Positions 32,817-33,545 of a stretch of 64,000 nucleotides of DNA are shown here, piece by piece. Position 1 is the stretch's first letter, and every line of letters begins with the position of its first letter. The stretch is from Candidatus Azobacteroides sp. Its GTDB lineage: Bacteria; Bacteroidota; Bacteroidia; Bacteroidales; WRGA01. The stretch spans positions 30,881-94,880 of the forward strand of contig JAJQEC010000090.1 in NCBI GenBank assembly GCA_021201815.1. Direction: 5' to 3'. The notes below the pieces were generated by a model. That model saw only the letters and a list, made by a program, of their open reading frames with translations. It ran no database searches and was not told where the DNA came from. A program made the translations under genes and the position numbers.

Positions 32817-33545
32817 ATGAATCTACCAGTCAGACAATATACAAAAGAAATGTATCGGAAATTCGGTTATTTTGCCACCTGGATGCCGGGTATCCCCATT
32901 GAACTGGGAGACGTGGGAACCATTGAAAATAATATATTTACAAAATTTACCGATCTTCAATCCGAAGCGTTGAAGATAGAGTTTAAGAGTAAAACAAAAG
33001 AAAATAAAGACTTTATTGAATATAAATCGGAAGGTCAGGTAAACCTGTCGGTTAAATTTGCCGGAACCCTTCCTCGTCCGGGTAGTAAACTGACGGAAGC
33101 AGATGCAGGGATTATGTTTGATTTTAAGAAAGCAAATTCGGTTTATTTCCGGGCGAAAGATGTATCCTTTCTGCAAATAGATGATTTACTGGATTTACAA
33201 CAGAAATTATTGCAACCCGATATCCGTAAAATATGGAAAAAGAATTGGGTAATTGTTACTCAGGTAGTATGTGCAGAAGCATTGGCGGTTATGCTTTCCA
33301 ATAAAAAAGATGCAACAGTAGAACTGAAAGCCAATGCGAATATCTCTGCCATTAAACCGGACATTCTGGATGCCGGCTTTGAATTTACAACCCGGAATGA
33401 TTCCGGCATGGAAACTTCCTATCTTTCAGAAAACAGAACCAGTCCGCTTTTTAAGGTACATATGCTGAAAAAGGAAGAACTGAAAGATCAGGCTGATGGA
33501 CAAAGAAGGGAAAGCTTTTATATGAAAGAAGTAATTTATCAATAA
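32817..33545 (+). CDS. 242-aa cytoplasmic beta-rich protein, candidate bacterial gasdermin-like pore-forming protein
   Basis: No signal peptide. By eye the segment order resembles a gasdermin N-domain. NWVIVTQVVCAEALAVMLSNKKDATVELKA compares with GSDMD NVYVVTEVLQTQKEVEVTRTHK. SPLFKVHML compares with ILAFRVAQL. A short ~25-aa charged tail follows. Not verified by any search. Confidence 0.45.
   Translation: MNLPVRQYTKEMYRKFGYFATWMPGIPIELGDVGTIENNIFTKFTDLQSEALKIEFKSKTKENKDFIEYKSEGQVNLSVKFAGTLPRPGSKLTEADAGIMFDFKKANSVYFRAKDVSFLQIDDLLDLQQKLLQPDIRKIWKKNWVIVTQVVCAEALAVMLSNKKDATVELKANANISAIKPDILDAGFEFTTRNDSGMETSYLSENRTSPLFKVHMLKKEELKDQADGQRRESFYMKEVIYQ

Follow-up and report, generated by a model that had tools for sequence, protein, structure and literature searches.

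The founding study of bacterial gasdermins (bGSDMs) described 50 genomic and 387 metagenomic sequences, and an adjacent protease gene was found for 43 of 50 canonical bGSDMs but not for the other 7 (Johnson et al. 2022). The inhibitory C-terminal peptides of bGSDMs comprise 17-67 aa, and an N-terminal palmitoylated Cys is conserved in most of these proteins, the Gillisia bGSDM being without it. Two eukaryotic gasdermins, RCD-1 and TrichoGSDM, consist of the gasdermin-N part only and are activated without cleavage, the former by heteroallelic pairs and the latter by forming a disulfide-linked dimer. In addition, AlphaFold DB clusters contain bacterial proteins that carry no Pfam domain and resemble bGSDM 7n51, some of them fused to proteases (Barrio-Hernandez et al. 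2023, doi 10.1101/2023.03.09.531927). Here, we analyzed a gene at positions 32817-33545 (+ strand) of a 64-kb stretch of contig JAJQEC010000090.1 from Candidatus Azobacteroides sp. (the whole stretch is hereafter called the window, and all positions refer to it). The encoded 242-aa protein belongs to a large family for which remote homology to bGSDMs is supported at the sequence level. With moderate confidence, we propose that this protein is a cytoplasmic, autoinhibited, gasdermin-like pore former, which would be activated by a protease and would kill the cell through a pore in the inner membrane.

The gene is an intact, ATG-initiated open reading frame (ORF), stop codon included, and it encodes exactly the 242-aa sequence quoted in the original prediction, which had proposed a gasdermin-N-like protein with a short C-terminal tail. 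A word-indexed homolog search showed that the product is identical to LUG18_09280, a protein of a metagenome-assembled genome (MAG) named 'Candidatus Azobacteroides sp.' (Bacteroidales), and that the same protein occurs on three contigs. It is probably a cytoplasmic protein of ~28 kDa. A profile built from five relatives found by the word index (one of them the identical MAG protein) was used for an exhaustive HMMER search, which yielded 2,221 family members at E<=1e-3, of which 461 reach E<=1e-30, both numbers being cluster representatives at 50% identity. Most members are 240-280 aa long. The family spans Bacteria and Archaea: a second search found members in the Bacteroidota and Planctomycetota, in Rhizobium, Streptomyces, and Tateyamaria, and in methanogenic or other Euryarchaeota. 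Without exception, the members that we saw are called 'hypothetical protein' and carry no precomputed Pfam domain. An alignment of 138 members (A2) formed the basis of the model scans, the family profile, and the AlphaFold run described below. In this alignment, the 242-aa protein keeps all 13 of the 13 invariant or near-invariant residues of the family.

Gasdermin models match a part of this family. The PADLOC bGSDM model (PDLC02986) matches 35 of the 138 aligned members (best E 4.7e-7) and the NCBIfam prok_gasdermin model matches seven (best E 6.7e-6), and gasdermin models are the only ones matched by more than one member. When the A2 profile was compared with 177,635 PDB sequences, the best match was the Bradyrhizobium bGSDM 7n50 (E 0.053, family positions 51-175); PDB sequence searches with the single sequence and with the five-sequence profile returned nothing. 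The family hidden Markov model (HMM) aligns three bGSDM sequences in one register, namely 7n50, a full-length metagenomic homolog of 7n50 obtained by a metagenome scan (L033, 259 aa, starting with MNC... and thus having the Cys3 site), and the partial sequence of Runella 7n52, with per-comparison E values of 3e-7, 4.5e-5, and 3.3e-4, respectively. The region aligned includes the conserved 'FFVVTKV...' core block of the bGSDMs. For calibration, a comparison of the crystallized bGSDMs of Bradyrhizobium and Runella with each other gives no more than 21 bits (E 0.002); canonical bGSDMs are therefore nearly as distant from each other as they are from this family. Further canonical bGSDM sequences were found neither by a word-index search with the 7n50 fragment nor by tblastn of plasmids.

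The predicted structure was also compared with known folds. An AlphaFold2 model computed from the deep alignment reached a predicted local distance difference test score (pLDDT) of 93.9 and a predicted template modeling score (pTM) of 0.89, compared with a pLDDT of 34 when only the five-sequence alignment was used. The model begins with a helix (residues 4-16), followed by a hairpin (32-46), strands 58-70 and 75-80, strands 98-103 and 109-121, helices within 124-139, strands within 145-171 and 191-220, and a terminal strand (233-238), an order which we take to be compatible with gasdermin-N topology. In a Foldseek search against the PDB, ranks 1-15 were occupied exclusively by gasdermins, with probabilities up to 1.00 and E values down to 8.9e-4. 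The Vitiosangium bGSDM pore 9a84 gave these best values (E 8.9e-4, probability 1.00), and the RCD-1 pore 8jyz (chain 8jyz_B) was matched with E 3.4e-3 and probability 0.98, 8jyy being listed as well. The slinky oligomer 8sl0 (template modeling scores, TM-scores, of 0.44/0.47) and the GSDME pores 9h5m and 9pe0 were also among the top matches, and Runella 7n52, Bradyrhizobium 7n50, Trichoplax gasdermin 8jyv, and Vitiosangium 7n51 appeared within the same 15 ranks. MACPF/CDC structures entered the list only at E>0.3 and probability <=0.08, and the 242-aa protein has no Pfam MACPF match. A viral structure library, used as a negative control, gave no match for the model.

An independent argument for gasdermin-like action of the family comes from its protease context. 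Peptidase_C14 is fused to the gasdermin-like domain in four representatives (~900-950 aa) and Peptidase_S8 in one; PADLOC assigns the fused proteases to its models 'caspase' (E 1.4e-39) and 'subtilase' (E 1.7e-21). Separate protease genes are found beside other members: a 1,524-aa CHAT protein is encoded directly after the Streptomyces member, with the same arrangement in locus L026; a CHAT-AAA_16-TPR protein is encoded 22 bp upstream of a metagenomic member; a U49/M48-like peptidase gene comes after the Tateyamaria member; the Rhizobium member has genes for C14 and C1 peptidases in its vicinity; and C14 genes are present in loci L011 and L021. Thus, the family shares C14, CHAT, S8 (subtilase), U49, and C1 proteases with the 50 canonical bGSDMs, for which six partner classes are tabulated. 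The protease-linked members themselves reach a best E value of 0.023 against the curated gasdermin models.

The original prediction had been derived from a comparison by eye with human GSDMD. The two strings used for it are genuine (human GSDMD residues 128-177 and about 194-222), and the parallels drawn from them are not significant. For the first segment, the Smith-Waterman score against GSDMD 128-177 was 21, compared with a shuffle mean of 20.3 (p = 0.40), with 2 identities in 50 positions when the two are set side by side; for the second segment, the score was 20 and the shuffle mean 14.3 (p = 0.06). The only alignable part is the nine-residue core NWVIVTQVV / NVYVVTEVL, and this core falls in the region that the family profile aligns to the crystallized bacterial gasdermins. 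The proposed gasdermin-like identity itself is upheld: the by-eye alignment is not above chance, yet the model matches, the family profile, the AlphaFold/Foldseek results, and the protease context support the same conclusion. As regards human GSDMD/GSDME (PF04598), the likeness is confined to the GSDME pores among the top Foldseek matches and to the 'VVTEV' core, which gives the best local GSDMD match. The differences are that pairwise similarity to GSDMD is not above chance, that none of the 138 members has a Pfam Gasdermin match, and that the 242-aa protein has no C-terminal repressor domain.

Compared with the bGSDMs of Bradyrhizobium (7n50), Vitiosangium (7n51), and Runella (7n52), the 242-aa protein and its family have the same general design, i.e. 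one gasdermin-N-like domain and a short peptide at the C-terminus within about 240-280 aa, and these bGSDMs are among its best structural matches. The short, charged tail described in the original prediction is present: the last 25 residues (KKEELKDQADGQRRESFYMKEVIYQ) include 12 charged ones, and the protein ends 22-30 residues after the core with no large C-terminal domain. This remaining length lies inside the range published for bGSDM inhibitory peptides. The inhibitory role that had also been suggested for the tail is consistent with the model, in which strand 233-238 is confidently placed after a linker of lower confidence; by likeness to bGSDMs, the C-terminal strand is a candidate inhibitory peptide, and it lines up with the 'IYFG' motif of close relatives. 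The fungal RCD-1 and Trichoplax TrichoGSDM resemble the 242-aa protein as single-domain products of solitary, protease-free genes and as Foldseek matches to its model, and differ from it in that no sequence similarity was detected. With its single Cys (C152) and predicted docked tail, the 242-aa protein fits a cleavage-type design better than that of RCD-1 and TrichoGSDM.

The mechanism that we propose follows from the arrangement of elements along the protein (Table 1). In the soluble, autoinhibited form, the C-terminal strand (residues 233-242) would be set against the beta-sheet core. A protease would then cut the charged linker (about residues 217-232) and free the C-terminal peptide, upon which the two beta-amphipathic regions (about residues 49-82 and 163-192) would extend into hairpins, and oligomerization on the inner membrane would produce a large beta-barrel pore and cell death. 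The N-terminal helix, close to which the alpha hydrophobic moment is at its maximum (residues 7-18), is probably the counterpart of gasdermin alpha-1 in the model. The two amphipathic regions are candidate membrane-inserting hairpins, showing the pattern expected for a gasdermin pore: in the first, the beta hydrophobic moment, averaged over the family, amounts to 1.6-1.8 over residues 49-60 and 73-87, conservation drops at 58-66, and the model has strands at 58-70 and 75-80; in the second, the moment reaches 2.2 at residues 166-177 and 184-192, the maximum of the whole protein, with a dip in conservation at 172-181. By analogy with canonical bGSDMs, abortive-infection (anti-phage) defense would be the most plausible role. 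Autoinhibition by the tail, cleavage, pore formation, and the role in defense are what we infer for the 242-aa protein from these features and from its relatives.

Table 1. Elements of the gasdermin-like gene and its product, and neighboring genes, with positions in the window
Feature	Position	Strand	Basis or remark
Candidate Bacteroidetes-type promoter, TTTG-N22-TAcaTTTG	32740..32773	+	Motif match; ends 43 nt before the start codon
Residues 4-16, predicted N-terminal amphipathic basic helix (R6, K10, R14, K15)	32826..32864	+	AlphaFold helix 4-16
Residues 49-82, first beta-amphipathic strand pair around a poorly conserved loop; candidate hairpin 1	32961..33062	+	Hydrophobic moment, model
Residues 140-175 (WKKNWVIVTQVVCAEALAVMLSNKKDATVELKANAN), best-conserved block; aligned with bGSDM 'RNFFVVTKVWRARGIRISVADKSKKQVDLSAKA'	33234..33341	+	HMM and hhalign against 7n50, L033, and Runella 7n52
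Residues 163-192, second, strongly beta-amphipathic strand pair around a variable loop; candidate hairpin 2	33303..33392	+	Hydrophobic moment
Residues 221-232 (ELKDQADGQRRE), charged linker of lower confidence; candidate cleavage region	33477..33512	+	pLDDT 77 for 221-230 vs 94-97 on both sides
Residues 233-242 (SFYMKEVIYQ), C-terminal strand; candidate autoinhibitory peptide	33513..33542	+	Strand 233-238, pLDDT 94-96
Giant ORF, 1,720 aa (1,683 aa from the M38 start of the gene callers)	27626-32788	-	Divergent from the gasdermin-like gene, 139 bp by the callers' start
AraC/HTH_18 regulator, first of three paralogs just downstream of the gasdermin-like gene	33666-34814	-	
AraC/HTH_18 regulator, second paralog	34811-35935	-	
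AraC/HTH_18 regulator, third paralog	37268-39037	+	

The candidate promoter of the gasdermin-like gene was assigned by its motif. The -33 TTTG / -7 TAnnTTTG consensus is a mark of Bacteroides promoters, and across the window this motif has 11 matches, compared with 3.9 expected from shuffles.

Several results weigh against the interpretation of the 242-aa protein as a protease-activated gasdermin. With regard to homology, the NCBIfam model NF051890 (prok_gasdermin) matches the protein over residues 96-176 at only 15.8 bits (E 0.0089), far under its cutoff of 100 bits; PADLOC gives no match, and Pfam gives no Gasdermin match at E<=1 for the protein and none at E<=0.01, nor anything else relevant, for the 138 members. 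An hhalign comparison of A2, carried out as a family profile against a single bGSDM sequence and not profile against profile, was weak (P = 3.5e-4 and 3.7e-3, probability 37% and 9%), the lower probability (P = 0.0037) being that against a single full-length bGSDM. The Foldseek TM-scores (0.34-0.47, root mean square deviation 11-16 A) are under the usual same-fold threshold of 0.5; being so modest, and the deviations so large, they leave the same fold unproven by superposition. Gasdermins undergo a large conformational change from the inactive to the pore state.

The remaining points of this kind concern lipidation, the linker, and the partner. As the original prediction had remarked, there is no Cys near the N-terminus, C152 being the sole Cys of the protein, so a palmitoyl-Cys at C3/C4 is absent; in the family, only 5 of 227 members have a Cys within the first eight residues. 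In the Runella and Vitiosangium systems, mutation of the N-terminal Cys abolished toxicity. The linker shows an 18-column gap relative to the 10 closest homologs, and with a linker 18 residues shorter than theirs, the usual cleavage site could be lost. Counted from the conserved P210, the tail is 33 aa long, compared with a median of 50 in the family; tails this short occur in only 5 of the 138 members. Finally, Pfam detected no protease domain in the genes within about ±10 kb of the gasdermin-like gene, probes for C14, S8, CHAT, U49, and other partner proteins found no match among the ORFs of the window, and at 22 related loci of reference genomes, mostly Bacteroidota and 27-45% identical, a protease was detected in at least three (C14 in L011 and L021, CHAT in L026), a count that should be read as a minimum, since each probe was a single sequence. 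If the 242-aa protein is protease-activated, the failure to detect a protease in the ±10 kb region or in the window means that its activator is encoded elsewhere in the genome or comes from an invader. On present evidence, then, the protein is bGSDM-like by remote homology, yet it scores far under the curated cutoffs, lacks the palmitoyl-Cys, and, like most of its Bacteroidota relatives, has no adjacent protease, its own linker and tail being unusually short.

The solitary state of the gene suggests another way of activation. A search based on an 11-sequence alignment showed that the solitary arrangement is usual across many Bacteroidota lineages at 37-45% identity, and when the flanking ORFs of the 22 related loci and the window were clustered, the gasdermin-like gene was the sole gene shared among them, with no conserved non-protease neighbor in the Bacteroidota clade. 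Activation of a gasdermin-fold effector could be non-canonical here: in the solitary Bacteroidota clade, the protein would be sensor and effector in one, its tail being cut directly by a phage or other foreign protease or freed by a non-proteolytic trigger, and the host would supply no dedicated protease. The lack of any other shared gene favors this explanation, as do the up to 19 of 22 loci without a detectable protease, the 7 of 50 canonical bGSDMs that likewise have no adjacent protease, and the cleavage-free precedents of RCD-1 and TrichoGSDM. On the other hand, the family's distant members have clearly retained dedicated proteases, and the window covers only 64 kb of the genome, so a protease may be encoded elsewhere. 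We regard this explanation as rather unlikely. Still less likely is a more speculative reading, in which the protease-less, Cys-less Bacteroidota clade would amount to an immune module made of one gene: the protein would be sensor and executioner at once, its short charged tail serving as bait that a phage protease cuts directly, with the host supplying no protease of its own for this purpose.

The absence of a detected partner could also mean that a gasdermin system is decaying here, the gene being left as an orphan after the loss of its protease, a part of its linker, and its function. The 18-residue deletion in the linker and a tail among the shortest 4% of the family would agree with this, and 2 of the 22 related genome copies, both from MAGs, are disrupted near the N-terminus and otherwise intact. 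In L006, TGA replaces the codon (TGG) of the invariant Trp22 at 6049-6051, and in L016, a frameshift falls within an A-run (~6020-6030, about codon 14). Selection against a toxic gene, phase variation, or assembly errors could each explain these disruptions. However, the ORF in the window is intact and keeps every near-invariant residue, a promoter-like motif is present upstream, and the identical protein occurs on the three contigs. Moreover, the solitary arrangement being usual across many Bacteroidota lineages argues for long-term retention under selection. Decay of the gene is improbable in our view.

We give an equally slim chance to the possibility that the 242-aa protein is no gasdermin homolog at all, i.e. 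an unrelated beta-rich protein whose weak model matches and low TM-scores arise from convergence or chance. All direct sequence statistics of the protein are indeed marginal, its TM-scores stay below 0.5, and Pfam is silent. Nevertheless, the NCBIfam and PADLOC models and the comparison of the family with PDB sequences, which were built independently, agree on one region, and no other family recurs. In addition, chance resemblance would have to account for 15 Foldseek ranks filled by gasdermins alone with an empty viral control, and for a family that pairs with five of the six protease classes of canonical bGSDMs. Protease activation of a gasdermin-like pore former continues to be our preferred reading of the gene.

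The divergent giant gene beside it encodes a protein with a MACPF signature at aa 225-288 ('...YKSGTHFVSGVTLGD...'), which scores 21.6 bits against a Pfam threshold of 21.5. The remainder of this protein is without annotation; it has no obvious signal peptide and no sequence relative in the PDB, and in size it far exceeds the Bacteroidales MACPF toxins known to us. tblastn found no counterpart of it in any of 27 related loci, and with the protein absent from all of them, the adjacency of the two genes is probably incidental. That the 242-aa protein is an accessory or immunity partner of this MACPF-like protein in a two-component pore-forming toxin locus is scarcely credible: the genes are divergent and only 139 bp apart, both proteins come from pore-forming superfamilies, and the neighbor's signature just exceeds its threshold, but the empty tblastn result and the clustering, which shows no gene conserved beside the gasdermin-like gene, indicate independent distribution. 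The giant protein was rejected as a functional partner on account of this lack of co-occurrence with the gasdermin-like family.

Downstream, the first two AraC-type regulators (Table 1) are convergent with the gasdermin-like gene and have multi-pass membrane N-terminal halves. Further along the window, a KilA-N domain gene (39833-40483) lies upstream of a block of higher GC content (41090-55130, + strand; 0.45-0.485 compared with about 0.38 elsewhere), which encodes two giant surface-type proteins of 1,663 aa (Beta_helix/NosD/DUF5123) and 2,511 aa (Beta_helix/MBG_3/Big_3_5), followed by an OmpA-family beta-barrel protein. A metallo-beta-lactamase-fold protein is encoded at 25812-26714 (+ strand) and has a sub-threshold match to the anti-Pycsar nuclease Apyc1 (26.7 bits, cutoff 50). 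At 57721-59521 (+ strand), a leucine-rich repeat (LRR) protein is followed by a protein of the SUKH/SMI1-KNR4 family, whose members often carry the annotation of immunity proteins in polymorphic toxin systems.

Other architectures were also observed in the wider family. P0015 (618 aa) carries a DNA/RNA non-specific endonuclease domain (Endonuclease_NS, E 3e-33) N-terminal to the gasdermin-like domain (361-594), and P0046 combines N-terminal LRRs with a gasdermin-like domain; we know of no description of gasdermins fused to Endonuclease_NS or LRRs. Two distant members (in L002, 4443-7734, and L025, 826-4487) adjoin genes for a patatin-like phospholipase and a ~650-aa protein without Pfam domain, and the two ~650-aa proteins match each other (E 3e-147). 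The phospholipase and the ~650-aa protein may be an alternative partner set that replaces the protease.

The concept of divergent bGSDM-like proteins is not new, considering the AlphaFold DB clusters and the existence of protease-less and Cys-less bGSDMs. The AlphaFold DB clusters, as described, show the same pattern as the family of the 242-aa protein; the paper contains no analysis of genomic context and no protease-less Bacteroidota clade (doi 10.1101/2023.03.09.531927). Judged by its sequence, the 242-aa protein is a member of a large, distinct, Cys-less clade that is missed by current defense-annotation models. What is new is the outlining of this clade and of the mostly solitary Bacteroidota sub-clade that contains the LUG18_09280 gene.

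If the family forms gasdermin pores, prokaryotic gasdermins would be far more common than defense-system annotation shows, as its ~2,200 representatives, which go unrecognized at the thresholds of Pfam, NCBIfam, and PADLOC, compare with the 50 genomic and 387 metagenomic bGSDMs of the founding study. Provided that its members are true pore formers, a family without the N-terminal Cys would also serve as a test of whether lipidation is dispensable for gasdermin pores. Besides, the solitary clade of Bacteroidota poses the problem of what triggers a gasdermin that has no protease gene beside it.

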